64,000 nt of DNA from an uncultured Bacilli bacterium (GTDB taxonomy: Bacteria; Bacillota_I; Bacilli_A; RFN20; CAG-826): positions 5,680 through 69,679 of the forward strand of contig CAJOLV010000003.1 in the NCBI GenBank assembly GCA_905235515.1, in the 5' to 3' direction. Positions 43,595-64,000 of the stretch are shown piece after piece. A model generated the notes under the pieces. That model ran no database searches and was not told the origin of the DNA. It saw only the letters and a program-made list of their open reading frames with translations. Numbering within the stretch: position 1 is the first letter of the stretch; every line of letters begins with the position of its first letter. Both the position numbers and the translations under genes were made by a program.

Positions 43595-43647
43595 GTGAAT
43601 AATATAACGAAATTCCGTTATAAAATCAACTGATGTTATATGGGCAT

Positions 43648-45068: not shown

Positions 45069-45136
45069 AATAATTCTCCTGATGTTCTATACTAGTATAA
45101 TTATTTTTTATAGAAAAAGGAGAGTAAAATCTCCTT

Positions 45137-48368: not shown

Positions 48369-48370
48369 AA

Positions 48371-49045
48371 CTATCTCTCCTTATGTTGCTGCACTTTCTT
48401 TATGAAATAGTTCGCGACTAAATCAATACCATCCTCTGTTTTTGCGCTGATAGGAATAATTGTCGCGTGCTCATTTCTCATTTTAATATATTTTTGACAC
48501 TTTGATAAATCAAAATTAAAGTATTTTAAAGCATCCATCTTATTTATAATCACTAAATCGGATTTTTCAAACACTAAAGGATACTTTAATGGTTTATCAT
48601 CGCCTTCTGGAATTGAGAGGATCATCACATCTAAAGATGCTCCAGTATCAAATTCTGCTGGGCAGACTAAATTACCAACATTTTCTAAGAAAACGATATC
48701 TAAATCAGAGATATCTATTTCATCCAAACCAGTCTTAGTCATACCGGCATCTAAATGACACATACCACCTGTGTGTAATTGTATAGATTTAACTCCAGTT
48801 TTTTCAGCAATTTTTATTGCATCGACATCACTATCGATATCAGCTTCCATGACCCCCACTCTTAAGGTGGTTTTTAATTTATTAATTAATTTAGTTAATG
48901 TTGTGGTTTTGCCTGCTCCAGGAGAGGACATTAAGTTAACAACTAAAACACCTTTTTCTTTAAGATAACTTCTTAATGCCTCCGCTTCTAAATCATTATC
49001 GGCGTAGGCAGAGCGATGTAATAATATAGTCTTAACTTTTCCCAC
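48371..49045 (-). CDS. hypB: Nickel-insertion GTPase HypB
   Basis: 224 aa. P-loop SSPGAGKTT and the HypB signature ENVGNLVCPAEFDTG. Confidence 0.9.
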   Translation of the reverse strand: MGKVKTILLHRSAYADNDLEAEALRSYLKEKGVLVVNLMSSPGAGKTTTLTKLINKLKTTLRVGVMEADIDSDVDAIKIAEKTGVKSIQLHTGGMCHLDAGMTKTGLDEIDISDLDIVFLENVGNLVCPAEFDTGASLDVMILSIPEGDDKPLKYPLVFEKSDLVIINKMDALKYFNFDLSKCQKYIKMRNEHATIIPISAKTEDGIDLVANYFIKKVQQHKER

Positions 49046-49090
49046 GGTATCTCCATTATAGTGTATACTAGTCTATTTTGGTATCAGTTT

Positions 49091-49440
49091 TATTTTAATA
49101 AACTTTGGGAAATCCACTCCTTGATGAAGGCTTCTTTCGGCATTGGTGTGAAAGACCCTCTTTTAATTGTCAGTTTGCTAAGGGGATGATTTTCTAAGAA
49201 TTGAACAACACTTTTAATATCCACTAATTCATCTTTAGTGCCATAAAGTATCTCAGTTGGGTTGTTCCAAATGTCTCGCTAATTCTTTAGGAATTGATAA
49301 AAATCATAATTAAGTGTTTACCCATTACTGCATATAATTGTGTGCACTAATTTGAGATTATCTTCCGAGATGCCATTTTCTATCATCAAATCTTGTGTTA
49401 TTTTCTGTATATCTGGTTTTCGATGTCTCAGTTCCGAGTT
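49091..49440 (-). pseudogene. Decayed remnant of an alpha/beta-hydrolase-like gene in the hypB-hypB intergenic region
   Basis: The minus-strand frame reads ...RDIWNNPTEILYGTKDELVDIKSVVQFLENHPLSKLTIKRGSFTPMPKEAFIKEWISQSLLK* (stop at 49091-49093). Upstream continuation is broken by stops (...TQDLMIENGISEDNLKLVHTIICSNG*). No start codon or RBS. Confidence 0.4.
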
Positions 49441-49545
49441 TTAACAACTTTTTTTAGTCAATAACATATAAATACATTTATATCCGTTTGAATTAAGTTT
49501 CATAATACACTATAGTAAGTAGTTGTGATAACAGGTTATAAATAT

Positions 49546-50208
49546 ATGGATTTTCAAGTCGTAAAAGTTAAAGAAGATATCTTACAAGATAATAACCAGA
49601 AAGCTAATGAATTACGTGCTTATTTAAAATCTAAGCATATCTATTTTATTAATGTTATGGCGTCACCTGGTTCAGGTAAAACAACCTTATTAGTTAATCT
49701 CATTAATAAATTAAAACAAAATTTTAATATCGGAGTGATGGAAGCGGATATTGACGGAGATGTCGATGCGGAAAGAATCTCCTCTTTAACTGGTGTGAGA
49801 GCCATACAAATCCATACTTCAGGAGCGTGTCATTTAACCGCTCAGATGGTCGAAGATGCGATTAAAGAATTTGATATTGAGGGATTAGATTTATTGTTTT
49901 TAGAGAATGTTGGTAATTTAGTCTGCCCGGCAGAATTTGACACCGGCAGTAACATCAATATGATGTTATTATCTGTCCCAGAAGGTGATGACAAACCTCT
50001 TAAATATCCATTAATGTTTGAGGTTAGCAATATCGCTGTTATTACAAAGATTGATACAGCGGAAATCTTTGATTTTGATTTCGATAAATGCTATCAAAAT
50101 ATTAAAAAGAGAAATGAAAAAGCCGAGATATTTAAAGTCTCAGCTTTAGAAGATGAGGGCATTGCCCCATTACTGTGTCATATTAAAAAGTTAGTGAATA
50201 ATAGATAA
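49546..50208 (+). CDS. Second HypB-family nickel-insertion GTPase (paralog), divergently oriented
   Basis: P-loop ASPGSGKTT and an identical signature ENVGNLVCPAEFDTG. About 50% identical to the upstream HypB. The ORF-track start at 49525 is an extension; the ATG at 49546 (MDFQVVKV) is preferred. Confidence 0.9.
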   Translation: MDFQVVKVKEDILQDNNQKANELRAYLKSKHIYFINVMASPGSGKTTLLVNLINKLKQNFNIGVMEADIDGDVDAERISSLTGVRAIQIHTSGACHLTAQMVEDAIKEFDIEGLDLLFLENVGNLVCPAEFDTGSNINMMLLSVPEGDDKPLKYPLMFEVSNIAVITKIDTAEIFDFDFDKCYQNIKKRNEKAEIFKVSALEDEGIAPLLCHIKKLVNNR

Positions 50209-50338
50209 GTAAATTTTTGTACGATTTATTAGCGAATCTTATTGTTTAATAAGTAGATGAATTATACATTTTAGTGACGGTTGTGATAGAGTCATTATAC
50301 TCAATGACATTATCAATAGTACATTTTATGTCTATGCA

Positions 50339-51871
50339 TTATGCATAGAAGACATCTCTTTTATTAAAAGCATTATTGGATGATCTAAAGTCAGAGGCAT
50401 AGAGGGTGTGTCCGCCTTGATTATATTGATTTTCTAATAACCAATCTTTTAATATGGTGCGATAGTTTTTATCTAATTTAATATGTTCCTCGATTGGTTT
50501 GTTATCAATTGATGGTAATCGATCGTAATATCTTCTCGTATTAGTGTGAAACGCGATATAGTCAATTGTGGCGATAGTTATTGTTTTGTTATCGCTTAAT
50601 GTGATAGGTGTATCTTTGTCTTTACATATCCAACTATCTGACATGACCTGATTAATATATTCATTTTTAGTTATTTCAAAGATATATATATCATTATCAA
50701 ATGGGAATGCTTCATAGATATCTGCATATGTCCAAGTTCCCCTTGGCAAATAGTGTCTGGCTTGATTGCAATAGCTGAAATCAATATCGTAACCACACTC
50801 CTTAGAGTAGTCATAGATAGCTTTACACATGACCATTGGAGCCTCTTCAGTTGCATCAAAGGAGCCATTCACATTAGTGGCCAATATTTGACTAGCTTCT
50901 TGCTCACACTCTGTAGCGTAGGTATCAATAATCGCTTGTATAGTAGGATTAATAGTTTTCACACTAGAATTCACTGTAGATGTGGAAATAGTTTTAAATG
51001 TATCGGTAGTGACTTCGTTGGTGTTTTTATGATAAGTCAATTCAATATATCCTAATCCATTAGTGTTACTACCAAATTGACCATAATATAATGTCTTATC
51101 TTCGATATATTTTTCATTTTGATGGCTATGTCCACATAACACTAAATCGACATAATTAGATAATCCATATCCTTTTAAATCGTCTTGATCAGCGTGACAA
51201 CAGGCAATAACAATTTGGCAGCCCTCTTCTCTTAACTTACTAGCTTCTTTTTTAATGACATCAACATGGTTTTTAAATGTTAATTCTCTCACATAAAAGG
51301 AGTTTATGGAGGCGATTTGTTTGTCACCAATTGTCCCCACTATCCCGACTTTTACATCTTCATCAAATGTATATGTCACTGTGGTGACACCAATTTGACT
51401 TTGTTGAATAGAACCCACTCTTTTAGTGGTAAAGTCAAAATCATAGACATTCGCTGCTAAAACAGGAGTCTTATACCCTAGAAATTCTCTATTCGTGTTA
51501 TTAATTAGATATTGGGCGCCCCAGTCAAAGTCATGATTGCCAACAGTGCGAGCGTCATAATGAACATAGTTCATAATGTCAGTAATCATATTGCCATAAT
51601 TGATATTGGAGTAAATACTCCCTTGCCAAGTGTCACCTTGATCCAATAGTAAAACATTATCTTCACTATCTTTTTTATCTTTAAGATAAGTCATTAGTTT
51701 ACCAACGCCAATGCGATTAGATTCAGGATAGACTTGTCCGTGTATATCATTTGTGGCATATATTCTAATCACTGTGTCCCCTATTTCTCTTTTCTCGTGG
51801 CAAGCACAAACTGAGATTAATAGAGATACAATAGTGACACTTAAACCAAATAATTTATGAGTAGACTTCAT
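50339..51871 (-). CDS. Lipoprotein 5'-nucleotidase / bifunctional metallophosphatase (UshA-like)
   Basis: Signal peptide with lipobox LLISVCAC. Calcineurin-like motifs NDIHG, DQGD and GNHDF, plus a C-terminal 5'-nucleotidase substrate-binding domain. Start taken at the second ATG (MKSTHKLF...). Confidence 0.8.
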   Translation of the reverse strand: MKSTHKLFGLSVTIVSLLISVCACHEKREIGDTVIRIYATNDIHGQVYPESNRIGVGKLMTYLKDKKDSEDNVLLLDQGDTWQGSIYSNINYGNMITDIMNYVHYDARTVGNHDFDWGAQYLINNTNREFLGYKTPVLAANVYDFDFTTKRVGSIQQSQIGVTTVTYTFDEDVKVGIVGTIGDKQIASINSFYVRELTFKNHVDVIKKEASKLREEGCQIVIACCHADQDDLKGYGLSNYVDLVLCGHSHQNEKYIEDKTLYYGQFGSNTNGLGYIELTYHKNTNEVTTDTFKTISTSTVNSSVKTINPTIQAIIDTYATECEQEASQILATNVNGSFDATEEAPMVMCKAIYDYSKECGYDIDFSYCNQARHYLPRGTWTYADIYEAFPFDNDIYIFEITKNEYINQVMSDSWICKDKDTPITLSDNKTITIATIDYIAFHTNTRRYYDRLPSIDNKPIEEHIKLDKNYRTILKDWLLENQYNQGGHTLYASDFRSSNNAFNKRDVFYA

Positions 51872-52240
51872 ACACATTTATGATATGCAAATAAGTTATT
51901 TAAGCAAAGAAATATATTAAACAATCTATTCACAAGGAGGCCTATCTATAGGCCCAGAACGGATTATCTATCTTTTATGATTGTTTACTTTTGATGTCAA
52001 AATAAGGAATTACTTTTTAAATACAAAAATTTTTATTGATTTAAAGATAATAAATATGGTGGGTTTTGAGATTTATCAAATATATGATTTATTACACAAT
52101 TATCACTCTCTAAGGGAACGGAAATTACTTTAAGAATTCACGGTTAACAAATTAAAAAGCAATTTCAGTTATCACTAACTAAAACTGCATATACATCAGA
52201 TAGCCACAACATGAGGCAAAAGACTTCTGAAGAACGTTTT

Positions 52241-53293
52241 TTAATTCTTTTTCCAGTAGTAACTAACACCATTAGTGTTACCAACCTTCTCAATTAATCC
52301 TTCCTTAAGAAGTCTAGATAATTCTAATTCAATGGTGCTATAGGAAATATCGGGCCAAAAATTATGGATTTCTTCTTTGGTAATTTTACCAAGAGTTTGC
52401 TTTATAGTTTCCTCAACTCTTTCGGCTTTAGAAAGCTTCTTGTCCTTAATAATGATATAGCGGCCAGCCAGTTCATTATATGTGGACAAAAGCATAAGTA
52501 AGAAATTTTCTATAAAAGGCCAATAAGAGTTTTGATTATCTGCCCATCCAGTAGATGATTCATAAAGTTTTTGATAATATGCTCCTTTGTTTTTGTTAAT
52601 CATATATTCCAAAGAAACATATTTGCCCACATCATATCCACTTTTATAAAGAAGTAACAAAGAAATTAATCTAGACATTCTTCCGTTTCCGTCTTCAAAT
52701 GGGTGAATACATAAAAAATCTAAAACAAAACACGGAATTAATAATAGAGGATTGATGTTGGAATTTTGTCTCGCTTCAAAGAAAGCTAATATCATTTGCT
52801 CCATTGATTCTGGAGTTTCTATCGCATTGACTGGTATATATCTTATAGATCTACTGCCATCAGGATTCTTTTGAGCAATAACATTATCAACTTGTTTCCA
52901 ACTTCCTCTAGTTGATGTCTGAGCGTGTTCCAAAAGAATTCTATGTAGCAACAATAATTGTCTTGCATCGACATCCATTGTCATGTATTCATTATGAATT
53001 CTTTCTAAAGCGTCCCTATAACCGGCAATTTCTTTTTCGTTGTGGTTTAAAGGCTCAGTATCTTTATTAACAATGCTTTCTATTCTTTTATCAGTGGTAA
53101 CAATACCTTCAATGGCATTACTGGCCTTAACAGATTGAATTTTAGCAATCTTCACTAAATTGATAAAAACCTTAGGATAATTTGTTTTAAAAGTATCAGA
53201 AAGGTTTTTGTTTCTTTCAATTGCAAATAAATATGAGGCTATATTTGATGGGATAGCTTCTTTTTCCAAAAACGAATAATCGTATTTTCTCAT
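52241..53293 (-). CDS. Fic-family protein (AMPylator-type) with N-terminal inhibitory motif and C-terminal winged helix
   Basis: 350 aa. Fic motif HPFEDGNGRMSRL, an inhibitory-helix-like SNAIEG upstream, and a C-terminal wHTH-like region (LIEKVGNTNGVSYY). Confidence 0.9.
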   Translation of the reverse strand: MRKYDYSFLEKEAIPSNIASYLFAIERNKNLSDTFKTNYPKVFINLVKIAKIQSVKASNAIEGIVTTDKRIESIVNKDTEPLNHNEKEIAGYRDALERIHNEYMTMDVDARQLLLLHRILLEHAQTSTRGSWKQVDNVIAQKNPDGSRSIRYIPVNAIETPESMEQMILAFFEARQNSNINPLLLIPCFVLDFLCIHPFEDGNGRMSRLISLLLLYKSGYDVGKYVSLEYMINKNKGAYYQKLYESSTGWADNQNSYWPFIENFLLMLLSTYNELAGRYIIIKDKKLSKAERVEETIKQTLGKITKEEIHNFWPDISYSTIELELSRLLKEGLIEKVGNTNGVSYYWKKN

Positions 53294-53422
53294 AGCAAGG
53301 CTCCTATCTGCATAAAATATATAGCATTTTAGTTAAATAATCAATCAATAAGTGGATATATTTGCCTAATTTGACGCTGTTTTTAGTTAAATAAAAGCAC
53401 CAAGCTCTACCACATTAATTTT

Positions 53423-53698
53423 TTGTCATTTTTTAACGCTAAATTAAATGTGACAAAATTAATAACATTAATCATCTTCACATTAACATGCTGGGGGGCA
53501 CCATTATGTATTCAAATACCATTTCTAATTATTGATTTATTGTTAGAGAAAAAGGCTATCAAAGTAATAGTTAAAATAATCTTTGTAATAATATCTTTGA
53601 TTCTTTTCTTTTTGGTTCCTAGTTCAATAAGAGTTTCAATAGCTTTATTCTTTCTTCAACTGCTAATTGAATATCTTGTTTCTGATAAATTTAGCTAA
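53423..53698 (+). CDS. Hypothetical small hydrophobic protein (doubtful)
   Basis: 91-aa ORF that is almost entirely hydrophobic and AT-rich. No RBS or domain. Could be an AT-rich artefact. Confidence 0.2.
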   Translation: MSFFNAKLNVTKLITLIIFTLTCWGAPLCIQIPFLIIDLLLEKKAIKVIVKIIFVIISLILFFLVPSSIRVSIALFFLQLLIEYLVSDKFS

Positions 53699-53812
53699 TT
53701 TATTTATTCAATTGTAAATACCAAATTTATAGATGTCTTTAACGTACTGTAACAATCCCTAATTTTTCAAAATGCAAAAATATTCATACTGTAACAATCC
53801 CAATTAGAGGTG

Positions 53813-53879
53813 TGTTAAACATATATCTATATTATTCTATAATATAGTGTGTTAAGTTTTAGATACGCTGATAATAGTA
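53813..53879. repeat. Copy A of a repeated ~67-bp promoter/operator-like element containing a perfect 9-bp inverted repeat CTATATTAT-tct-ATAATATAG
   Basis: GTTAAAC-ATATAT-CTATATTAT-TCT-ATAATATAG-TGTGTTAAGTTTTAGATACGCTGATAATAGTA is about 80% identical to copy B at 56954-57020. It carries a -35-like TTAAAC and a -10-like TATAAT. Confidence 0.6.
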
Positions 53880-54035
53880 AGAAAAAATGCCTTTAGATTA
53901 AAAGCTGGCACGACTATATTAATCCAAATGGTATAAATGCGAGTAAAATTGCGCTTGATTGTGAAAAAGATTATTAACCGACTATAATAATCCCGTATAA
54001 AAACAGAATAATTTCGGTGTGCCTAGAAAAGATTA

Positions 54036-54770
54036 TTATTTAAATGCGTTCTTATCAAATGTTATCAATTTATATCCGTGAATTTGAAAATAAAAATCGT
54101 TAACATAGTTTTTAATCCATTCAACCTTTGAAATTGAACTTTCATTATGATTGTCATGGGCTAAGATGGCAGAATTTATGATATTATTAGCAACTCTATT
54201 TTTTAACGCTTTTCGAATCTTTTCATTAAAGAAGAATAGCGGATTTACACACACGGATGAATCTGAGTCTTTAAAAAACGGTTTATCAAATTGCCTTGTA
54301 GGCATGGATTCGATATCAATATTTTCTAAAACATTTTTATCAATAATTGTTCTAGGGTATATAGCCACTTTGGATTCAAGCTCATAAGCTCTAATTAACG
54401 ATTCACCTAAAACTATTTCAGAATCAATATGAAGCAACCCTTTAACGATTGCACCACGAACAAGTAATTCATAAACTGATAAACATTCTACAGCAAAACC
54501 AGCAGCAACATTAAAAAGCGAATTGAGTGATTCGGTTGGATTATCACCATTAATTTTCACAGCAAATAAAAAATTATCTGAAAAAGATCTAATAATCACA
54601 TCTTTTGAACGATGTTTTTTTATAAAATTGCTGACAAGCCAAAGCTTAGAAAAAGTGCTTTTTTCATCTTTTTTTAAGCTTGCCTTTGTACCCAAGGCAT
54701 CAAAATATGCAACGTAATACTCTTCACACGTCAATTCTTTATCTGGTAAGCCGTTGATAATCAAGCTCAT
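54036..54770 (-). CDS. Hypothetical protein (244 aa), third gene of the AbiEi-like/ATPase operon, with weak class-III nucleotidyl-cyclase-like sequence features
   Basis: Translationally coupled to the upstream ATPase. Segments YFDALGTKA and, about 40 aa later, IRSFSDNFLFAV resemble the two metal-binding Asp strands of cyclase/palm domains. VLGESLIRAYELES resembles the cyclase signature VWGDTVNLASRMES, but the key N and R are not conserved. No confident family assignment. Confidence 0.5.
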   Translation of the reverse strand: MSLIINGLPDKELTCEEYYVAYFDALGTKASLKKDEKSTFSKLWLVSNFIKKHRSKDVIIRSFSDNFLFAVKINGDNPTESLNSLFNVAAGFAVECLSVYELLVRGAIVKGLLHIDSEIVLGESLIRAYELESKVAIYPRTIIDKNVLENIDIESMPTRQFDKPFFKDSDSSVCVNPLFFFNEKIRKALKNRVANNIINSAILAHDNHNESSISKVEWIKNYVNDFYFQIHGYKLITFDKNAFK

Positions 54771-56011
54771 TAGTTAAACCGCCTATTCTCTTCCATGAAC
54801 TTCATTAAGTTTGCATGTATAATTCCGTTTCTCTTTTGGATTAAGAAATCTGTAGTCAATACATACTTAGGAAAATTATCTTGAATCTTTTCTAAAGGAG
54901 CATACTCTCTATTTTCTGTATCTTCACTGCTTAAGATAGTATATGCAACTTGAACATAAGAATAATTTAAGAATAAGTCTTTCAAGATAAAATCACATTC
55001 TAATGCGCCAATTCTACCAACTGATACATCATAGTTCTTAGATTTGGCATAAAGATATGCAACATTTTCCAGTGCGGGTCCGTAGTTAATTTTGCTATTT
55101 GGATTTGTAAATTGTGCAAACGATAAGTCGGCTAGATAGTATTTCTTTTCATTTTGAAACATCTTTCTGGACTTCATATCGAATCTGCCACATTCATAAA
55201 TAATCTTGGCATCAATCAGATGTTGAATATACTTCGCTACTGTGCGGAATTGGATGGCAATGCCATTCTTGTTTAAATCTTTAACAATGTTATTAATGCT
55301 GGTTGTGGCTCCATAATTATTAATGATGTAATCTCTAACCAAATTAAAGACTTCGACATTCTTGATTTTTACTCGCTTCTTAATGTCTTTCTTAAAGATT
55401 TCGTCCACTATTTCACTAATGTATACTTTTTTAGCGGCGATATCAGGTAAGAACAGTGTTCTTGGAAAACCGCCTTCAACAATATAGTGTTCTAATTCAA
55501 TAGAAAGATTTCCGTCCACTGGCATCTTGTAGAATTTTTTCATGTCTAAGTATTCGTAGAAATTAAGAGGAAAAACCTCAAATTCAAGATATCGTCCAGT
55601 AAGATGCGTCATCAATTCTCCGCTGAGAAGATAGGAATTGCTACCAGTTATGAAAATTGAATAATCTTCTTCAGCTCTAAATGCATTTATCATTCTCTCG
55701 AAATCTTTAACATTTTGAATCTCATCAATAAATAAATACTTAGTGCCTTTTATTCCTTTGGATAATTTATCAATCAATTCTTCAAGAGCATCCGGAGTTT
55801 TAATCTTTGTATATCCTCTTTTATCTAAATCAATATAAATAATATTGTTAGGATTCACTCCACCTTCAACTATTTCCTCACTTATCATTTGCATGATGGA
55901 AGATTTTCCGGATCTACGAACACCAGTAATAACTTTAATTAAATCATTTTCATGGTAAAAAGGTCTGATTCTAGATAAATAATTTTCTCTTTTGTAAAGC
56001 TTCTTTTTCAT
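54770..56011 (-). CDS. COG1373-type AAA+ ATPase (AAA_14 domain + C-terminal DUF4143)
   Basis: Walker A GVRRSGKSS about 35 aa from the ATG at 56011 and Walker B LFIDEIQ. The C-terminal region has the DUF4143 length and pattern. The ORF-track start at 56065 adds 18 aa with no RBS. Confidence 0.8.
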   Translation of the reverse strand: MKKKLYKRENYLSRIRPFYHENDLIKVITGVRRSGKSSIMQMISEEIVEGGVNPNNIIYIDLDKRGYTKIKTPDALEELIDKLSKGIKGTKYLFIDEIQNVKDFERMINAFRAEEDYSIFITGSNSYLLSGELMTHLTGRYLEFEVFPLNFYEYLDMKKFYKMPVDGNLSIELEHYIVEGGFPRTLFLPDIAAKKVYISEIVDEIFKKDIKKRVKIKNVEVFNLVRDYIINNYGATTSINNIVKDLNKNGIAIQFRTVAKYIQHLIDAKIIYECGRFDMKSRKMFQNEKKYYLADLSFAQFTNPNSKINYGPALENVAYLYAKSKNYDVSVGRIGALECDFILKDLFLNYSYVQVAYTILSSEDTENREYAPLEKIQDNFPKYVLTTDFLIQKRNGIIHANLMKFMEENRRFN

Positions 56012-56118
56012 ATTTTCTGACTCTATATTATCTATTTTTCTAGTTAAATGCAAGTTATCGCACAATAATTTACAATATTTTAAGATTTTAGTGCCATAAC
56101 CGCCATTTATCTCACATT

Positions 56119-56745
56119 TTATAGTCCTAACAGCAGATTGTGGATATTATTTTCGATTCCTAAATTATCTAGTACGGTCTTCAATCTAACAAATGTTATC
56201 TGATTGTATTCGGCTAAAAGATGTGTCGTAATATATTCATCTTTATATCCTTTGGCGAGTTCATTTAAAACTTCGATATTCTCTAAGCATTCAATCTTTG
56301 TTTGTTGGCTTAATATTTCAAGAAGCTCTCTAAAGGATCTATTGTCTTTAGTTATCATTGTTTTAGTTGGAATAATCTTGTTATTGCCAATAGCCTTATT
56401 CCTTTTTACATAGCACTTAATCTCAACGCAACTAGGCGCATCTTCTATTAATCTATATTTATATAATAAGGATAGGCCTGATAGCATTCCGTAGTTATTA
56501 TCAACATAGAAATCTACCATTGCTTTTTGAATATCTTCTTCAGTTGGATTCTTGCCAATATAATAAACACCTTTACCAATCTGGGTCATTTTAAGAACAG
56601 CGTTAGCTCTAGTGAGATATTGCCTAAAAGAATCGAAATCATTTGTTTGAAAATAGTGGGTAGCTAAAATCTCCACATCAAATATGGTGTTCTGATGTGT
56701 TCTCCCATAATTAATAATTTGTTGTACGATAGATAAATTTTCCAT
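56119..56745 (-). CDS. AbiEi-family-like regulator/antitoxin (winged HTH)
   Basis: 208 aa. RANAVLKMTQIGKGVYYIG (the xGVY motif of the AbiEi N-domain) and YGMLSGLSLLYKYRLIED (the GxLSGxSA...GL-like motif). First gene of an operon with the AAA ATPase. Confidence 0.5.
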   Translation of the reverse strand: MENLSIVQQIINYGRTHQNTIFDVEILATHYFQTNDFDSFRQYLTRANAVLKMTQIGKGVYYIGKNPTEEDIQKAMVDFYVDNNYGMLSGLSLLYKYRLIEDAPSCVEIKCYVKRNKAIGNNKIIPTKTMITKDNRSFRELLEILSQQTKIECLENIEVLNELAKGYKDEYITTHLLAEYNQITFVRLKTVLDNLGIENNIHNLLLGL

Positions 56746-56953
56746 ACACCTATATTATATATAAATGCAATTGCGAGACAAGTTAAAATATCAAAAATTA
56801 CTTGATACTTTACTTTATATATTTTATATATAATAATGAGTATATCAAAATACTACTGTCTCGCAAGTCCCCATTGTCTTTCACCGGCTGTATAAATACC
56901 AATTTTATAAATGAATAAAAAGTTTTCGACTATAATAACACCATCAAAAAGCA

Positions 56954-57020
56954 TGTTAAATCTATATACTATATTATAAATAATATAGTGCGTTAATCTC
57001 AAGATACACTGATAATAGTA
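56954..57020. repeat. Copy B of the ~67-bp palindromic promoter/operator-like element (CTATATTAT-aa-ATAATATAG)
   Basis: GTTAAATCTATATA-CTATATTAT-AA-ATAATATAG-TGCGTTAATCTCAAGATACACTGATAATAGTA. Lies about 210 bp upstream of the AbiEi-like gene start. The minus-strand reading gives -35 TTGAGA, an 18-nt spacer and -10 TATAAT. Confidence 0.6.
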
Positions 57021-57248
57021 GCCTTCTTCAAACTGCAATATGCTGTTTTTAATAAGTGTTTCACTTTCAACAGTATTTGATTTGCAAAAAAGTTATCAAT
57101 ATAATACTAGTCCATAAAAAAGAAGTGTTAATTAAACTAATAATCTCATTTCTATTTTCAATTTGAGACTTTTTAAGATGATTAGATAATTGGCTTTCAA
57201 ATAATGAATCTAAATCGTTTGACATTCTTTTTTATTATATAAACTCAA

Positions 57249-58349
57249 TTAAAATGATCCAAATTTCGGATTCTTTCTAGCATTCATGTATGCGCATTTT
57301 CTTAATTCACTATATAGTTCCTTATCTTGAAGCGCTAATTGAATTTTTTGTTTATATTTGCCAAAAAAACAGGTTGAATCAAGTATCTCAACTGAGCCAA
57401 TATCGTTATTGAACAATATTTTGGTCGCCAAAACATAAACTTTTGTTGCCATTTTAATGAGCGCTTCACTAGAAACACTTCCGCCTAAAACATAGGCATT
57501 AAAACCATTTAATCCTTGCATTAAAATTTTATATTCATCTTTTGGACCAAACTCACCATAATCAATAATGTTTGAACAAGTCAAAATCGTGTCTTCCAAA
57601 CAATCTTCGACTTTATTGACATTCTTATAATAAGGGATCGAATTAGTTATTAATTTACGATATGTTTTAGAAATTAATTCAAAATCAGTTGAATAATCGA
57701 GAAGAGTAGAAACATCATATAACTGTTTAATTATCTCAATATGTTTTGGTCTTTCATCTTTATAATAGTCGGTGAATTTAATACCAGATGTATGAGGGGC
57801 AAATGCCACTAATTTGTCGCCAATTAATTCATCAACGGTTGGTAAATTAACTTTATAAAACGGCTCTTCAAAAACAAATAACTCATTATCTATATTTTTA
57901 ATTTGAACAACAGAATAAGTATTGTCTTCAAAAACAATATCTAGCAAAACAAAAGACTCCTCAACTTCTTCGTCGATTATGGATTCATAATTAAACTGAA
58001 AATGGGCTTTGTCTACACCTGGTTTTGGTGGTCTTATTTGTTCATTAATTTCGCTAAAGAAATCAGACTTAATGTTTTTAATTTTGTTGATAATTTCTTC
58101 TTTTTTGCTATTTGGACACAAAATGTCTATATCAATAGATAGACGATTCAACTTATTCAAGAGAAGCAAAATCGAAGTGCCGCCTTTAAAAATAAAATCG
58201 ATCTCGTTTTCCACTAGTGTTTCCAAAACTTTAAAAGCATATGCAAGTTTCTCTAAATGTTCATTACTTACATTTTGAGTTTTGGCTATTTTATTTATTC
58301 TTTCTTTGTCGAAGTTTTTATTGCTAATCATATCGTATTGCCCTCTCAA
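57249..58349 (-). CDS. AbiEii/AbiGii-family nucleotidyltransferase (type IV TA toxin)
   Basis: 366 aa. The FIFKGGTSILLLL...RLSIDIDIL pattern matches the AbiEii GGT(S/A)L and RxSxDxD motifs. Overlaps the upstream partner by 26 nt. Confidence 0.8.
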   Translation of the reverse strand: MRGQYDMISNKNFDKERINKIAKTQNVSNEHLEKLAYAFKVLETLVENEIDFIFKGGTSILLLLNKLNRLSIDIDILCPNSKKEEIINKIKNIKSDFFSEINEQIRPPKPGVDKAHFQFNYESIIDEEVEESFVLLDIVFEDNTYSVVQIKNIDNELFVFEEPFYKVNLPTVDELIGDKLVAFAPHTSGIKFTDYYKDERPKHIEIIKQLYDVSTLLDYSTDFELISKTYRKLITNSIPYYKNVNKVEDCLEDTILTCSNIIDYGEFGPKDEYKILMQGLNGFNAYVLGGSVSSEALIKMATKVYVLATKILFNNDIGSVEILDSTCFFGKYKQKIQLALQDKELYSELRKCAYMNARKNPKFGSF

Positions 58350-59085
58350 ATTCTGGGTTTGCTTTTTTCAATGTTGATAAAACTTTTTGTTGTCTATTTC
58401 TTTTGGTGGCATAACGAAGAAGGGTAGAATAATTGATGGAATACCGTTTGATTAGTTCGGAGTAAATATGTGGTATCTCATTAGATAACATTTCATCCAA
58501 AAAAGAATCTGAAACAATATCCACCATCATTTTTTCCAATTTAGGCTGCGTTAATCTAGGGCCTTCTTCTTTCTTTTTGCACCTGTAAATGGGTGCATCT
58601 TCATTAAAATTTTTCACTACATAAATCGTTCTATCTGTATTGTATTTTGAAAAAGTTTTCAAATCTTTATAGAAAACCGCAGAAATTCCTTTTTCTTTTA
58701 ATTTATTAATCACATGTTCTGTTGCAAACTTCTGGCACTCAAAGATAACGAAGTTCTTATTCGGAATCAAATGCGAGTATTTTGAAATCCAAGACGAATC
58801 CCAAACAGAAACATCATAATCAATAACATCTCCTTCAAAATAAAAGAAATATTTATCCAACATCTTTTTTTTGAAAGAAGGAAGAATGTTATTAATTTTG
58901 TATTTGTTAAAACTATATTTGGAGATAATGTTGTCTTTGCAAAGCTCATCCACAACCATATAAATCTCGTGTTGTTCCTTTATTTTCATTTGTGACGAAA
59001 CAATCTTAAAAAGTTCATCTTTGGCGATGAAGTCACTTTTTTTGGCTTTCTCTTCAATAATTACAATCAATTTCCTATTTTTCAT
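58324..59085 (-). CDS. AbiEi-like antitoxin / transcriptional regulator partner of AbiEii
   Basis: 253-aa gene immediately upstream of, and overlapping, the AbiEii NTase gene (the canonical AbiEi-AbiEii arrangement). Assignment is mainly positional; sequence similarity to AbiEi is weak. Confidence 0.5.
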   Translation of the reverse strand: MKNRKLIVIIEEKAKKSDFIAKDELFKIVSSQMKIKEQHEIYMVVDELCKDNIISKYSFNKYKINNILPSFKKKMLDKYFFYFEGDVIDYDVSVWDSSWISKYSHLIPNKNFVIFECQKFATEHVINKLKEKGISAVFYKDLKTFSKYNTDRTIYVVKNFNEDAPIYRCKKKEEGPRLTQPKLEKMMVDIVSDSFLDEMLSNEIPHIYSELIKRYSINYSTLLRYATKRNRQQKVLSTLKKANPEFERAIRYD

Positions 59086-59218
59086 AAAATCGGGTTTTTT
59101 CTAATGTTTTACCCGTTTTCATATTACAAAATTATCGTTAGATAGTAAAGAAAAAATGGTTTGTAGAGTTATCTTTACCAATAGGTGTTGATTTCAATTT
59201 TTGCTTATAAATATTGTA

Positions 59219-60508
59219 TCATTTGCCATAATGCAGTTTAACACCATCAATTAATACTGATTTAAATTTTGTAAATTGATAATAATACTCCCAAATATAT
59301 AAAATAGCGGTAAATAGATCAACACACATCTTTCCAAATTCCAAAAAAGAAGTTTTATATGTTTTTGTGCCGTTTTTTGTTTTATTTATAAAAGTGACTT
59401 CTTGATTAAGACCATCGGTAAAAATAGAATTATGGCCTTCTGCATTTCTAATAATGTTATTTAGAACGCCCCTTATTCCATCAAACAAATCGGAATTGTT
59501 ATTAGTAAAGTATTCATATTTGTTATATTTTGAGCCCATGCCATTTAATCTTTCGTTGAAATCATATATTCCTGTATCAAAGTGGTTATATGTTCCGTTA
59601 GTTTCAATGTTATAAAGCCCAACCAATAAATCTATTGAATCGCAAAGAAGTTCAAATCCCTTTTTATACAAAACCGCTAAGTCATCAATAGATATTGTTG
59701 AGACCCCTTGTTTTGTAAAATCAATATTACCGAATTTATCAAAGTTATCATAAACAGGCAAAAGCTGGTCAACACATTTGATGTAGTCGATTATGTAAGA
59801 AGGCATCTTAAAAAGATACGTTTTGAAGTAATCATTATCAAGATTGTTTAAATAATCTTTTACAGACAAAACATGCTTTTTAACTATGCGTCTAGTCTTT
59901 TCATTCATTATTTGATACATATTGTTAAAAACACCTTCAGGCATTATTGGTTGTAGCAAAGAATTTACATAATGTTTTGTTGCTAACATAGCATCTAACT
60001 CATTGATTATGTTGTTTGCATTATTGTGTTTATTGAGTTCGACTAAGATATTCTCGTTCGTGTTTAAAAAATACTTTCTAATTAAATCCACTCTATTGGT
60101 GCTTAATAAGTTATAAATGTTCTCAATTTTATTAATGTAAATATCAGATTGATTAACAAAATATAAAAGATTTTGCATCCTTTGGTTCTTAGAAGGAGTA
60201 GTAAAACCTCTTCTTACAAACATGCTCATTTGAACATCAGTTGTTTCATCTCTTTGTTTATACTTATCGATTAAGAATTCTGTTGCTAGTTCGAGTACAT
60301 AATTATAATCTTTATTGTTTGTTTCTGTGGCGCCGATAATGTTTTCGCTTATCGTGGTGTTTTTATTGTCGATCACTATTGTTCCAGAAATATGGCAATT
60401 ACATTTTGGACAATAGATGCTTACAGGAATATTAAAATAACCAACTTGATATCTAAGTCTTAATAAACAATTACAATAATTGCATTTATAAATACTATTT
60501 CTAACCAT
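59219..60508 (-). CDS. Zinc-ribbon protein with C-terminal HEPN-like RX4H motif (possible Abi-type effector)
   Basis: 429 aa. N-terminal CNYCNC...CPKCNC zinc ribbon. C-terminal IIRNAEGHNSIF fits the HEPN R-x4-6-H motif. Sits 58 nt downstream of the DGQHR gene on the same strand. Confidence 0.45.
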   Translation of the reverse strand: MVRNSIYKCNYCNCLLRLRYQVGYFNIPVSIYCPKCNCHISGTIVIDNKNTTISENIIGATETNNKDYNYVLELATEFLIDKYKQRDETTDVQMSMFVRRGFTTPSKNQRMQNLLYFVNQSDIYINKIENIYNLLSTNRVDLIRKYFLNTNENILVELNKHNNANNIINELDAMLATKHYVNSLLQPIMPEGVFNNMYQIMNEKTRRIVKKHVLSVKDYLNNLDNDYFKTYLFKMPSYIIDYIKCVDQLLPVYDNFDKFGNIDFTKQGVSTISIDDLAVLYKKGFELLCDSIDLLVGLYNIETNGTYNHFDTGIYDFNERLNGMGSKYNKYEYFTNNNSDLFDGIRGVLNNIIRNAEGHNSIFTDGLNQEVTFINKTKNGTKTYKTSFLEFGKMCVDLFTAILYIWEYYYQFTKFKSVLIDGVKLHYGK

Positions 60509-60566
60509 GTGTGATTATTTCAAAATTTGCTGGCCATTAAACGGGTGACAAACTTGCATAAATGTT

Positions 60567-62366
60567 TTACAAACTATCTCTATTTTGCTTGTTAATTGCA
60601 GGAATGATTAAGGCCTTTGCAAATTTACTATATTGTGCTCCTGCATATGGAAAATTAGTATTATCCGAAGAAAAATCTAAATTAAAATCTCTAAAGGCGT
60701 TCAAATAAAAATCATAATTTTTTGGTCCTTGTGTGTTAGCAAGCGTCTCTTTAAAAGCAATGATAAATGCGTTCAAAGAAATGACTTTCAACAAGCGAGA
60801 GTTTTTATCCCAATAATTTAAAAATCTTCCTTTAATTGCTTTAAAATAAGTTCGCAATGAATTAGCACAATATTTTATATAGTCCTCAATATCTTTGCTT
60901 TGCTCTAGAACAAAATCATTACTATAGTTATTCTTTTTTAACCAATACTTATAAAGGCTTGTTGGCACATTCTTTGCCACAAGAAGACTAGACATAGCGT
61001 ATTGTATGATTGATGCGATTTTTATAGGAGCGTCATCAGTCTTAGATAATTGAAACATATTTTCAAAAGGTGCATCGTTATTTAACAATTCTATAACTCT
61101 TCTAGAAACAGCTTCCCCAGAAGTTGGATTCATAATTGCTTGAATCTGAATGAGGGTATCTGCATCAACAGGTTTAGCGTTTTTATTAATTGACACAAAC
61201 AATTCGCTTTCAAACCTTCTCCTTTCGGACAAATGTTTGTATTTTTCATTATCTGGATAAATAATGCCGGTGACTAATAAATTGTATGAATCACGCATTG
61301 GTTTAATTAATTGTTCATCCGTATTATCTTTGTCACAATCTTCATAAAACGCAAAAACACGATGTTGACCATCAATAATGCCAATCGAATTATATTCAGT
61401 TGGAATCTCCATCATAATATTATTATCAAAGCGAACAACATTATCTAATATCACTGTTTCTCTATTGTCTTTGTTAAAGAAGCGAACTCCATCTGGCAAT
61501 GTGACAATAATGTTGTTAATAAATGTTGTTTTCTTTGCAATAACAAAATCTCTAATAGATTTGATTCTTTTAACGGTTAATAATCTTTGATACATATCTG
61601 GTTGTTTTTCCCAACCATCTTTTCTTAAAACATATGAATATTTAATTAAATCGATTGGTTTCATCATAAAAGAAACCATTCTTATGCCGTCCTTGTATCC
61701 AGTCACAGAATCTGGATAAATGATCGGAGTAACTATTGGTAAATTAACTGAATTCCCGGAAGGGTCTGGTTTTCCAATATCTTGAATTCGTAATTTTAAA
61801 TATTTAAATAATTCATATTTGAAAGATGCTTTAATGCTTTTTGACATCAAACAAAAATAACTAAAAGTAGATTTATCAATAAGATTTAAATGTGTGTACC
61901 TTTCAATATCTTCCTTGATATATCTTGTGATTCCATATTCGAAATATAAATAATAAATATTAAACTCTTGTTGTGTGTATCTTTGAAGTGTCTCTTCGCT
62001 CGGGAATTTATCTCTTAAAAGTTTGATAAACGAGGCTTTTTCCGTTTCTCTTATAATTTTAGACGTTTCTTCTTTTTCTAATTTGTGGTTTTTATTAAAC
62101 GGCATACCAGCCGCCAAAGCTTGTTCTTTTTCTTTGACAAACCTTATTGTGTCTTCACAAATGATGATTATGTTTTCGTAGATGAAACAGTGATCTAATT
62201 CATTTTGCTTTCCACCGAGAAGAAATTGCCAACCCTTAACACTTAATTTTGTAAAACCAGATAAAACAAATATGTTCTCAATTTGTTTAGAAAATGCATC
62301 TCTTTTCTTTTTCTCCGCAAGTTGTTCTTTGGTTAGTTTTGGCTTTTTGTTCTTTTTCTTTACCAT
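60567..62366 (-). CDS. DGQHR-domain protein (DndB-like, ParB/Srx-fold)
   Basis: 599 aa. The hallmark IIDGQHRVFAF motif is followed by an FVSINKNAKPV-type conserved segment. Has a lysine-rich N-terminus. The start overlaps the stop of the upstream methyltransferase by 7 nt. Confidence 0.8.
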   Translation of the reverse strand: MVKKKNKKPKLTKEQLAEKKKRDAFSKQIENIFVLSGFTKLSVKGWQFLLGGKQNELDHCFIYENIIIICEDTIRFVKEKEQALAAGMPFNKNHKLEKEETSKIIRETEKASFIKLLRDKFPSEETLQRYTQQEFNIYYLYFEYGITRYIKEDIERYTHLNLIDKSTFSYFCLMSKSIKASFKYELFKYLKLRIQDIGKPDPSGNSVNLPIVTPIIYPDSVTGYKDGIRMVSFMMKPIDLIKYSYVLRKDGWEKQPDMYQRLLTVKRIKSIRDFVIAKKTTFINNIIVTLPDGVRFFNKDNRETVILDNVVRFDNNIMMEIPTEYNSIGIIDGQHRVFAFYEDCDKDNTDEQLIKPMRDSYNLLVTGIIYPDNEKYKHLSERRRFESELFVSINKNAKPVDADTLIQIQAIMNPTSGEAVSRRVIELLNNDAPFENMFQLSKTDDAPIKIASIIQYAMSSLLVAKNVPTSLYKYWLKKNNYSNDFVLEQSKDIEDYIKYCANSLRTYFKAIKGRFLNYWDKNSRLLKVISLNAFIIAFKETLANTQGPKNYDFYLNAFRDFNLDFSSDNTNFPYAGAQYSKFAKALIIPAINKQNRDSL

Positions 62367-63259
62367 TTGAAATCCTCCGGTTTCTGAGCCACCTTTTGAG
62401 TCAAATCTGGTTCAATCACTGGAACATCTGGCCTATACTCAATCGTTCCTTCAATAGCCTTTGCAATACGTTCTTCTGCAATTGCTACATACTCTTTTTT
62501 GAGTTCACATCCAATAAATTTTCTTTTTTCCATTACGCAAGCAACCGCTGTTGTTCCACTACCAAAAAAAGGATCTACAACAACATCGTTCTCATTTGTA
62601 AGGGCTCTGATTAAACGTTGTGGAATTACTATTGGAAATTGGCACGGATGATCCGTTTTTTCAACGTGATTAGCTTTGACATTTGGAATTTCCCAAACAT
62701 CAGAAGGGTTTTTGCCTAAAGGATTGCCACTGAATTGACCGGCTTTTTTTCCTCTATAATATTTTTTGCCAGGATATTTTTGAGGAACCCTAATCATATC
62801 GAGATTAAAAGTATATTCTTTTCCTTTGGTGCACCAGAGAATTGTTTCATATCTACCACTGAGTCTTTTTTCGGCATTAAGGCCATGACCAAAAGTCCAG
62901 ATTATCCTGTTCCTTAAAAGCATTTGTGAGTCAGGTTCAAGATTCTCATTAATTTTTTGAATGATATTATAAATAATAATATCTAATGGAATAGATACTG
63001 AATCCTTAATATGAAATCCAACTTGCCAACACAAACTGCCACCTTTTTTTAATATACGGATAGACTCTCTAAGAACTTTCTCATTCAATGATGAAAAGGA
63101 CTTGATGTCATCTTTAATATTTTCATATTCTTTACCCATGCAATATGGCGGAGAAGTTACAACTAAAGAGACAGATTCATCATCAATTTTCTTTAATATT
63201 TTAAGGCAATCTTCGTTATATAGCCTTATATCATCCGATTGGAAACTAATTGTTTTCAT
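62360..63259 (-). CDS. DNA methyltransferase, beta-class amino-MTase (SPPY motif IV; probably N4-cytosine or N6-adenine)
   Basis: 299 aa. Motif IV TSPPY near the N-terminus and motif I DPFFGSGTT near the C-terminus, which is the beta-class order. ParB-like/MTase-associated context. Confidence 0.88.
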   Translation of the reverse strand: MKTISFQSDDIRLYNEDCLKILKKIDDESVSLVVTSPPYCMGKEYENIKDDIKSFSSLNEKVLRESIRILKKGGSLCWQVGFHIKDSVSIPLDIIIYNIIQKINENLEPDSQMLLRNRIIWTFGHGLNAEKRLSGRYETILWCTKGKEYTFNLDMIRVPQKYPGKKYYRGKKAGQFSGNPLGKNPSDVWEIPNVKANHVEKTDHPCQFPIVIPQRLIRALTNENDVVVDPFFGSGTTAVACVMEKRKFIGCELKKEYVAIAEERIAKAIEGTIEYRPDVPVIEPDLTQKVAQKPEDFKW

Positions 63260-63415
63260 TTTTAATAGTTTGTCCTATTTATTAATTTAACTTTTAGTTA
63301 ATTAGTTTTCAATCAAAATAAAGAGAATACTAACTAACCACCAGCTCTTTATTTTAGGAAAAAAGAAACAATTTTTAAATTGTATTAAAGAATGAGAATT
63401 ATGATAATAATTATA

Positions 63416-64000
63416 TGGAAAGAAAGACATTAGTTATTCTTGGTAATGGATTTGATTTAAAATGTGGCCTTCATAGCAGTTATAAAGACTTTTTTGACCA
63501 CCAGATTAAATGCTATCCGAACTTTAAAACGTTGTTTAAATATTTGAAAAATAATAAAGAAGCCTCATTCAACGAAAATAAAATAAACGAAATTATTCCA
63601 CTGATGTCGCTTGAAAAAGAATTATCTTTTTTTGACTTATATTTTCTTGTTAGTGACTGGCGAAATGGTTTTTTACAAACAAATAGAATATGGTCAGCAA
63701 TTGAAGACATGTTGTTATCTGGAATTACAGCTTCTAAGAATTCAATAAGTTTTAACATTTGTCATTCTGTCTTTATATCAATTAAATCGAAAGATTATTA
63801 TTTCTTTTATCAACATCAATATGCAGAAAAAATAATCGGTCATTATTTATATAAACTGTTCGACGGAAAGACATTGTCTGAAAATCTATACCATGATTTT
63901 TTAATAAAGGAGCTAAACAAATTTTCAATCAATTTTGCTAGATATATCACAAATCAAACAAGCAACAACGATGAATATATGCATGAGGCACAAGTTTTAT
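63416..64000 (+). CDS. AbiH-family abortive-infection protein (partial, 3' end beyond the window)
   Basis: ORF from the ATG at 63416 runs to the window end. The N-terminus MERKTLVILGNGFDLKCGLHSSYKDFF matches the AbiH signature (IIGNGFDLxHGLxTSYxDF). Confidence 0.75.

Follow-up and report, generated by a model that had tools for sequence, protein, structure and literature searches.

A probable chromosomal defence island in an uncultured Bacilli bacterium: a patchwork of six modules with two candidate defence components

The question raised by this locus is whether a dense group of immunity- and toxin-type genes at the end of a chromosomal stretch forms a defence island, a single mobile element, or a set of ordinary genes that happen to carry defence names. 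The stretch (hereafter the window) comprises 64,000 nucleotides from an uncultured Bacilli bacterium (assembly GCA_905235515.1, contig CAJOLV010000003.1, positions 5,680 to 69,679), and the genes in question occupy positions 52241-64000. From the evidence below, this block is very probably a chromosomal defence island, a patchwork of six independently acquired modules that has been reshaped by insertion sequences (IS). In our reading it has a HypB/5'-nucleotidase region on one side and an AddA-like gene on the other, beside what appears to be the debris of a polysaccharide-synthesis locus.

A first-pass annotation had placed a defence cluster in these last 12 kb, with at least five immunity- or toxin-type modules. 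Open reading frames (ORFs) and family scans of the window proteins with Pfam, PADLOC, NCBIfam and PHROGs recovered every gene that it named, in the place given for it, and nearly all of its family labels held. The number of separate anti-phage or toxin-type modules came to six, packed into 12.3 kb when the end of the last gene, AbiH, is included, and the six are supported by family matches, base composition, absence from relatives and independent distribution. In the ORF listing for 48000-64000 every gene from 52241 on is found on the minus strand, except for AbiH on the plus strand. The genes of the block are:

52241..53293, minus strand: SoFic-like Fic-domain protein, 350 aa (PF02661, 1.1e-13; PADLOC SoFic, 6.4e-36; phrog_5978, 4.6e-48)
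54036..54770, minus strand: 244-aa orphan protein, its start codon sharing one base with the stop codon of the ATPase gene
54770..56065, minus strand: ATPase with AAA_14 and DUF4143 domains (PDC-S01, 6.7e-132; AAA_14, 1.9e-34; DUF4143, 1.1e-7)
56119..56745, minus strand: AbiEi-like 208-aa putative transcriptional regulator or antitoxin (PADLOC AbiEi, 1.7e-15, positions 13-213 of a 230-position model)
57249..58349, minus strand: AbiEii nucleotidyltransferase toxin, ORF of 366 aa (PF08843, 1.5e-21; PADLOC AbiEii, 3e-83)
58324..59085, minus strand: AbiEi antitoxin or regulator (DUF6577), 253 aa (PF20217, 3.6e-31; PADLOC AbiEi, 6.1e-35)
59219..60508, minus strand: 429-aa protein of an unnamed family, with an N-terminal CxxC...CxxC zinc ribbon, an RNxxxH motif and no family match
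60567..62366, minus strand: DGQHR protein, 599 aa (TIGR03187, 86 bits against a cut-off of 59)
62360..63259, minus strand: beta-class N6_N4 DNA methyltransferase, 299 aa (PF01555, 3e-57)
63415..64000, plus strand: AbiH, first 195 of 372 codons, cut by the window end

Outside the block, the other 43 large ORFs of the window encode housekeeping functions (SufBD/SufS, cinA, recA, rny, ymdB, miaA, cmk, der, mnmG, rsmG, recU, FTHFS and FBA), and their PADLOC matches reflect generic paralogy only, such as that of SufS to DndA/SspA. The G+C fraction of 52241-64000 is 0.297, compared with a mean of 0.345-0.347 for the first 50.3 kb, in which the lowest value of any segment of the same size is 0.335, i.e. 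above that of the block. Since the other large ORFs are housekeeping genes, and since the G+C of the block lies below that of every segment of equal size, the clustering of defence genes goes beyond chance.

The nearest relatives were identified by the 964-aa oxidoreductase encoded near the block, which is 84% identical in two relatives (L017/L018 and L019); a relative closer than this was not present in a collection of 5.8 billion proteins. These relatives retain only the series HypB (minus strand), HypB, oxidoreductase and HypA, and lack the 5'-nucleotidase gene as well as every gene of the block. The series corresponds to 45130-50208 of the window, with two divergent HypB/CobW-type GTPase genes, the 964-aa FAD/Fe-S (GltD-like) oxidoreductase and HypA, and it is the sole part conserved with the 84% relatives; hydrogenase or urease genes were not seen nearby. 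A scan for the 5'-nucleotidase in one genome per species found no relative.

If the genes were ordinary conserved chromosomal genes of the lineage, and the island an artefact of their names, they should hardly be distributed in this way, and we regard that explanation as extremely improbable. Toxin-antitoxin-type and Fic genes are indeed common in many chromosomes, and the exact 510-aa 5'-nucleotidase protein is present only on contigs that also carry the block, both of which speak for it. On the other hand, all the block genes are missing from the 84% relatives, a scan of 185,579 species genomes with two conserved peptide patterns located the family of the 429-aa protein at just 4 loci, and the locus exhibits a shifted composition, IS scars and a truncated neighbour gene. 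The comparison with related genomes that the first-pass annotation had proposed thus did not show these to be core genes, but neither did it delimit the insertion site. Likewise, its statement that synteny ends after the 5'-nucleotidase gene is right in that the block starts there, but the break may be one gene earlier, near 50.3 kb instead of 52.2 kb, because the 84% relatives lack the 5'-nucleotidase as well.

The window had been said to end inside AbiH, and so it does, with residues 1-195 of 372 encoded. The suggested extension of the sequence was made possible by a 127-kb ENA metagenome contig (L001; ERZ27234816, k141_599907), found via the exact DGQHR protein that it encodes and 100% identical to window positions 50567-64000. 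On this contig AbiH stops at window-equivalent position 64533, so that 533 nt of the gene lie past the window; the complete 372-aa protein scores 61.4 bits on PF14253 against a gathering cut-off of 30.9. AbiH is the last of the defence genes. The island had been expected to continue past 64000; it does so for the end of AbiH, and then a gene remnant and IS elements follow before an AddA-like gene is reached.

The remnant is a 75-aa ORF (L001:7331-7558) whose residues 16-72 match the C-terminal end of the Bac_transf model and nothing else; judged from this match, it is a truncated sugar-transferase gene. It is followed by an IS66-family element (L001:3263-7367, window-equivalent about 65000-69104, about 1 kb beyond the window) with tnpA-like, TnpB_IS66 and DDE_Tnp_IS66 (tnpC) genes and 28-nt inverted repeats at its ends. 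A nested 1.6-kb element, sitting between tnpB and tnpC, carries inverted repeats of 30 nt that are 97% complementary, is accompanied by a 16-nt target duplication and encodes a 426-aa protein in which Pfam detects just helix-turn-helix (HTH) domains; by eye, we take it to be an IS30-type DDE transposase. The ends of IS66 were inspected for an 8-bp target duplication, which is absent, as is the 5' half of the Bac_transf gene beside IS66, which suggests that this edge arose with an IS-associated deletion rather than by simple insertion. Beyond the IS elements lies the 3' end of a gene for a 1317-aa UvrD helicase with a C-terminal PD-(D/E)xK motif, i.e. AddA-like. In total, the variable block extends over about 17.5 kb, from 52241 to about 69,700 (window-equivalent). 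The earlier statement that the cluster is free of integrase and transposase genes therefore holds among the ORFs and Pfam matches of 52241-64000, but not for the IS66 element with its nested IS30-like element about 1 kb further on.

The same extension bears on the possibility that the block arrived as one unit, as a degraded prophage, an integrative and conjugative element or an integrative island. The uniformly low G+C, the IS66 and IS30-like elements at the distal end, the nearly uniform gene orientation, and the fact that the methyltransferase-DGQHR cassette adjoins integrases and a relaxase in other genomes would all be in line with such an origin. However, the extended 21.8-kb locus contains no integrase or recombinase gene, no phage structural genes and no conjugation genes; tRNA and tmRNA genes, searched across the window, were not found, and a repeat search of the extended locus found no att-like direct repeats bracketing the whole block. 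The check for flanking tRNA or att sites that had been recommended thus came back empty on both counts, and the lack of integrase, tRNA and flanking repeats argues against a single integrative element. In addition, the modules are found separately, and the closest module relatives (on L037, L053 and L005) carry different companions. A single origin is accordingly very unlikely.

The patchwork reading is instead in line with the independence of the modules, each of which occurs elsewhere apart from the others and with unrelated neighbours. Clustering of immunity genes in variable genome regions is the defence-island concept of Makarova, Koonin and colleagues (see also PMC3632139). The block fits it with its six modules, shifted composition, absence from relatives, IS at the edge and modules that are separate elsewhere, and differs from it in having no integrase or tRNA anchor, the apparent hotspot being the edge of a capsule/extracellular polysaccharide (EPS) locus.

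Four points count against reading the block as an island, or limit what the reading says. Low G+C is by itself weak evidence, since the AddA-like gene beyond the window, at 0.302, is equally AT-rich. A clean empty site was not found among the 84% relatives, which had lost synteny on both sides, and their lack of the genes demonstrates that the region varies but does not define an insertion. The mechanisms proposed for the individual modules are read from family membership or motifs, and one of the modules, PDC-S01, is a candidate system only.

As a defence island the block is ordinary. Among 6,530 rumen genomes, no defence systems are reported to be more abundant than restriction-modification (R-M), PDC-S01, AbiE and SoFic (PMC13356809), and the mix of an R-M-like cassette with PDC-S01, AbiE and SoFic found here is this commonest rumen-reported set; several of the related loci that we found derive from metagenomes similar to rumen ones. 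The island as such adds little, and its value lies in two candidates, the unnamed zinc-ribbon/RNxxxH family and the very common methyltransferase/DGQHR cassette.

In the 429-aa protein, the residues R354-N355-x3-H359 (within IIRNAEGHNS) are invariant in an alignment of 23 sequences and correspond to the HEPN-type Rx4-6H signature. The predicted structure (predicted local distance difference test, pLDDT, 91; predicted template modelling score 0.91) exhibits an N-terminal beta domain with the zinc ribbon of C9, C12, C33 and C36, a long helical body, and a short helix that carries the motif, after which come a three-stranded sheet and one more long helix at the end. A word-indexed search returned only 30 clusters, all of them hypothetical proteins from metagenome-assembled genomes (MAGs). 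With a profile, 482 family members were found among 1.84 billion representatives (50% clustering), 266 of these with E <=1e-10 and nearly all full length at 400-495 aa. The distribution is sparse and patchy, in MAGs of Bacilli, Erysipelotrichales and Clostridiales. Some distant members (P0297, P0305, P0384, P0393 and P0403) end in an additional SEC-C zinc-binding motif, which is missing from the window protein. The PADLOC models and a PDB sequence search gave no match to the window protein, Foldseek with its model found no match among viral predicted structures (BFVD), and a scan of viral contigs for the family was negative.

The neighbours of the gene differ in each of five contexts, and four of the five are defence neighbourhoods. 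In the window it lies among AbiE and the R-M-like cassette. At a second locus (L005) it is accompanied by Shedu (SduA_C), DUF4365, FRG, AbiH, a C5-methyltransferase with a GHKL ATPase, and a TIR protein; at a third (L006) it directly follows Wadjet JetABCD; and at a fourth (L020) it directly follows an AAA_13 ATPase beside a capsule locus. At the fifth (L008) it is isolated, with no obvious defence genes. We also considered the gene as a third part of the methyltransferase-DGQHR module and rejected this, as no partner recurs across the five contexts and the 429-aa gene is missing from DGQHR cassettes elsewhere. The changing neighbours, mostly defence genes, point to a stand-alone gene that is enriched in defence neighbourhoods and is a candidate effector. 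In such a role the zinc-ribbon head might serve sensing or nucleic-acid binding, and a putative HEPN-like RNase centre (R354/H359) would cleave RNA on infection.

Single-gene HEPN effectors of abortive infection and defence include AbiJ, AbiU2 and ApeA. The 429-aa protein has in common with these that it is encoded by a stand-alone gene in defence neighbourhoods and carries the invariant R-N-x3-H in a helical domain; it differs by the sheet after the motif, the N-terminal zinc-ribbon beta domain and the lack of a match to a HEPN profile or structure. This last difference is also what weakens the HEPN reading: no Pfam family, HEPN included, matches any of the 23 members, Foldseek with the model against the PDB gave no match (best E 2.9), and it is the motif that suggests a HEPN membership. 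Of the first-pass description of a zinc-ribbon/HEPN-like protein, the zinc ribbon and the invariant RNxxxH thus stand, but the HEPN part is a candidate assignment. It is quite possible that the protein is a zinc-ribbon regulatory or nucleic-acid-binding hitch-hiker of variable regions and not a defence effector. It has no homology to known defence families, and the contexts examined are few (n = 5), with one of them (L008) lacking recognisable defence neighbours. However, the invariant RNxxxH is a HEPN catalytic signature, the four other contexts are of a defence kind (AbiE plus R-M-like cassette, Wadjet, Shedu/FRG/AbiH/TIR and AAA_13 ATPase), and the occurrence in the MAGs is patchy, all of which speak for the candidate effector.

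The second candidate consists of the methyltransferase and the DGQHR protein, the 3' end of the methyltransferase gene overlapping the start of the DGQHR gene by 7 nt. The methyltransferase has SPPY at residue 36 and FxGxG (FFGSG) at residue 231, and SPPY coming first is the beta-class order. In the DGQHR protein an N-terminal part of about 200 aa is PD-(D/E)xK-like, and residues of about 230-540 form the DGQHR (DndB/ParB-like) domain with IDGQHR at 331-336. An AlphaFold model (pLDDT 86) likewise places an N-terminal alpha/beta domain before the DGQHR domain. The residues E56, D58, N65, E71, H94 and K98 and the DGQHR motif do not vary among 23 sequences with identities as low as 40%. Foldseek with the model against the PDB gave weak matches (E 0.1-2), among them unrelated ones of low probability; those relevant to the fold are the PD-(D/E)xK nucleases XisH, Card1, Can2, Cdn1, VC1899, AF1548, Bax1 and the R2 endonuclease, and, in one further case, the N-domain of pNOB8 ParB. 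A PDB sequence search with the protein found nothing.

The architecture is very common, with >1,400 homologues of 580-680 aa. In eight of ten distinct contexts an N6_N4 methyltransferase gene lies immediately upstream of the DGQHR gene, usually overlapping it by a few bases, and across contexts the identity of the methyltransferase tracks that of the DGQHR protein. The neighbours are otherwise unrelated (tyrosine integrases plus relaxase, transposases, a serine recombinase, other R-M genes). The cassette has its closest relative at L053 (66% identity), within another island that also holds a reverse transcriptase, DUF3800 and a pair of PDC-S01-type ATPases, of which one precedes a different gene of 658 aa; a UDP-glucose dehydrogenase gene adjoins this island.

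As the best reading, we infer that the pair is an R-M-like two-gene cassette. The methyltransferase would mark and thereby protect host DNA, SPPY hinting at N4-cytosine, and the DGQHR partner would cut unmarked DNA via its N-terminal PD-(D/E)xK-like domain, gated by the nucleoside triphosphate (NTP)-binding DGQHR/ParB-like domain. Fusions of ParB-like DGQHR/DUF262 domains with nucleases of the PD-(D/E)xK, HNH or HEPN kind are frequent, and such domains are associated with R-M (PMC3632139; PMC4619093); a DndB-like protein binds ATP and GTP (bioRxiv 10.1101/2025.10.10.680097). Three observations tell against a cleaving partner: the assignment of its N-terminus to PD-(D/E)xK is a weak one, drawn from a structure model and Foldseek matches of E 0.1-2; the canonical (D/E)xK lysine is replaced by threonine (E71-D72-T73); and two DGQHR homologues, on 'viral' contigs, have no adjacent N6_N4 methyltransferase.

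The same three observations would fit a pair that does not cleave at all, an epigenetic or modification module in which the DGQHR protein acts as a DndB-like NTP-dependent DNA-binding regulator or as a reader of the methyl mark. The literature describes DndB as a repressor that depends on ATP (bioRxiv 10.1101/2025.10.10.680097), and the nucleotide binding of DndB-like proteins noted above would suit such a part. We consider this rather unlikely, since invariant E56, D58 and E71 together with H94 and K98 are typical of an active site and not of a plain DNA binder, the fold-relevant matches are nucleases of one fold class, the tight overlap and the mobile-element neighbourhoods are typical of R-M cassettes, and nuclease-fused ParB-like domains are recurrently linked to R-M (PMC3632139).

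Comparison with known systems places the R-M-like cassette between several of them. As in Type II R-M, a beta-class N6_N4 methyltransferase is coupled to a protein, here with a putative PD-(D/E)xK-like domain, and the two genes are mobile together; the putative nuclease differs in being fused to a DGQHR/ParB-like domain of about 310 aa and in its atypical motif (ExD...EDT plus distal H/K). SspE and BrxU are further enzymes of the GmrSD type. With these and GmrSD the DGQHR protein shares a ParB/Srx-fold domain with DGQ(H/Q)R and a nuclease domain, and NTP control of DNA cleavage is plausible, but the nuclease domain there is a C-terminal HNH and here an N-terminal PD-(D/E)xK-like one. In GmrSD, a DUF262 ParB-like NTPase is fused to a DUF1524 HNH nuclease (PMC4619093). 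Moreover, the window protein has its own methyltransferase, which implies protection by modification and not a modification-dependent attack.

The DGQHR domain is also that of DndB and DpdB (TIGR03187, 86 bits; DpdB, 7e-11; DndB-type, 8e-10), but the window protein scores far below both equivalog cut-offs and has the extra N-terminal nuclease-like domain. None of the dndACDE, dptFGH or dpdA/C-K genes is found in the block, and the one DndA/SspA-type match of the window is the housekeeping SufS beside SufBD. Because the partner genes of both are absent, this is not a Dnd or Dpd system.

Taken together, the two candidates would represent a new anti-phage effector family with a HEPN-like centre in a new fold context, and an undescribed class of R-M; that both hold is a doubtful proposition, which we put forward tentatively. 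If true, there would be an R-M class in which cleavage is gated by a ParB/DndB-type NTP switch, linking that fold to the restriction of unmodified DNA.

The other modules are, for the most part, conventional; Fic, AbiEi/AbiEii and AbiH are ordinary members of their families. In the Fic protein the active-site motif HxFx(D/E)GNGRxxR is present as HPFEDGNGRMSR at residue 197, the inhibitory-helix motif SNAIEG is found N-terminally at residue 58, as in the class II type, and the C-terminal tail is winged-HTH-like. Like SoFic, a single-gene system of PADLOC and DefenseFinder, it has both the active-site and the inhibitory-helix motifs and a near full-length PADLOC match. However, its score on the NCBIfam SoFic equivalog NF046030 is 54.5 bits against a cut-off of 550, so the orthology test failed and it is a member of the family, not an orthologue of the SoFic of Shewanella. 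Judging from the family, it would be an auto-inhibited AMP-transferase of SoFic type that modifies a target protein once triggered. Downstream of its stop codon, the gene is followed by a feature that marks the proximal edge of the block:

52159..52188, minus strand: terminator-like hairpin with a 13-pair stem and T-run, just 3' of the Fic stop codon (pattern match only)

AbiEi and AbiEii are encoded by adjacent genes, the AbiEi stop codon overlapping the AbiEii start. AbiEii, which is called on public contigs as a 360-aa protein with its start at 58331, carries the nucleotidyltransferase signature GGTS...DIDIL. With overlapping DUF6577 and PF08843 genes and the GGTS...DxD signature, the pair fits AbiE type IV toxin-antitoxin systems and shows nothing unusual; by family, it would work as an abortive-infection system with a nucleotidyltransferase toxin and an autoregulating antitoxin. 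AbiH, likewise by family, would be a single-gene abortive-infection protein. What sets the locus apart from a plain AbiE system is the second, diverged AbiEi-like gene (208 aa), which is paired with the ATPase in place of AbiEii.

The first-pass annotation had taken this AbiEi-like gene and the ATPase for an operon. The genes are present, but a conserved system they are not. ATPase relatives of 40-93% identity were found at 16 metagenome loci, and the 244-aa gene is present at none of the 16, while the AbiEi-like gene is represented by C-terminal remnants upstream of the two closest relatives alone. At one locus (L037, 86% nucleotide identity) the ATPase gene is directly followed by the sequence that in the window lies 3' of the 244-aa gene. 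This junction, together with the absence at the relatives' loci, indicates that the 244-aa gene is a lineage-specific addition, and a conserved pair of ATPase and 244-aa gene was rejected on the same absence.

The ATPase itself (start at 56011 and 413 aa as called on public contigs) aligns over residues 16-426 with positions 3-408 of the 412-position PDLC04787 (PDC-S01) model. PDC-S01, an ATPase fused to a PD-(D/E)xK domain, is among the most abundant prokaryotic defence candidates and is not experimentally validated (PMC12988326). The window ATPase shares both domains and the full-length model match, and differs in the AbiEi-like gene that precedes it and in the translationally coupled 244-aa gene that relatives lack. 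From the family, ATP use would be coupled to the DUF4143 (PD-(D/E)xK-type) domain; the AbiEi-like protein, which has no Pfam match, probably represses the ATPase operon, and the 244-aa gene would be a recent add-on. In the island with the closest DGQHR relative (L053:449-7359) a PDC-S01-type ATPase comes after a 1013-aa reverse-transcriptase protein and is itself coupled to a 658-aa gene of an unrelated kind, which hints that AAA_14/DUF4143 ATPases may pair with variable downstream genes.

The 244-aa protein had no match in Pfam, PADLOC or NCBIfam or among PDB sequences, and a metagenome scan with it found nothing; its sole match is phrog_23933 (9.7e-14), a PHROG without known function. A reading as a class III nucleotidyl cyclase stemmed from a by-eye resemblance and is not claimed, as Pfam and PDB searches gave no support. 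The motifs behind that idea, which resemble the metal-binding motifs of such cyclases, are YFDALGT, RSFSDNFLF and VRGAIVKG...GESLIRAYELES.

The three genes for the AbiEi-like protein, the ATPase and the 244-aa protein are bracketed by the only notable repeat that was found, the two copies of which are 72% identical:

53734..53879, no strand assigned: direct repeat of about 146 nt, copy A, 3' of the 244-aa gene, containing the palindrome CTATATTATTCTATAATATAG
56875..57020, no strand assigned: direct repeat of about 146 nt, copy B, upstream of the AbiEi-like gene

The internal palindrome of the repeat reads CTATATTAT(T)CTATAATATAG. The sequence of copy A is also the one found immediately behind the ATPase gene on L037. 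Copy B holds the best sigma-70-like match of the region (TTGAGA-18-TATAAT, minus strand, 57002-56973), which is weak evidence because promoter-like sites are no commoner there than in shuffled sequence: a scan of the region gave 67 sigma-70-like sites against 72 expected, and is thus uninformative. The repeat might mark the boundary of a cassette or represent a promoter-operator region that was duplicated.

The block had also been described as lying next to Bacillus-like core synteny. The gene order (cinA-recA-rny-ymdB), together with the class B RNase P RNA of the window, which also carries an FMN riboswitch, bears this out, but the lineage is another one. Relatives go by the names 'Bacilli bacterium', 'Erysipelotrichaceae/Erysipelotrichales bacterium', Candidatus Enterosoma, Izemoplasmatales and Acholeplasmataceae; on this evidence the host appears to belong to an uncultured gut- or rumen-type lineage of Bacilli/Erysipelotrichales type, known from MAGs only, and not to Bacillus.

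At four loci (L001, L005, L020 and L053) in these bacteria the defence genes adjoin capsule/EPS genes or fragments of them (Bac_transf, epimerases, UDP-glucose dehydrogenase, Wzz, CpsB). The stretches are:

L001:7331-7558: capsule/EPS stretch by defence genes
L005:1-2000 and L005:15763-16032: capsule/EPS stretches by defence genes
L020:6671-12160: capsule/EPS stretch by defence genes
L053:19840-21168: capsule/EPS stretch by defence genes

In the relative L019, which is without the island, an intact polysaccharide locus (L019:1-3625) lies 5 kb from the HypB/oxidoreductase block. In these uncultured Bacilli, defence genes may thus have settled repeatedly at the edge of the capsule/EPS locus, which would make it a recurrent hotspot. 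The IS66 transposase TnpC found at L005 is 91% identical to the one by the present block, and flanks another defence island there.

Two minor features were noted in the window. In the 740-nt gap between the Fic gene and the 244-aa gene, a 91-aa plus-strand ORF (53423-53698) has predicted membrane-protein character; it has no family match and is not called as a gene on public contigs. Finally, 8 kb outside the block, 43028-44127 contains two small minus-strand genes, for a 156-aa protein with HTH_3 and NTP_transf_2/Polbeta domains and for a 188-aa HTH_26 protein (from the annotation of an identical contig, L003), which may constitute an MNT-type toxin-antitoxin or regulatory pair.

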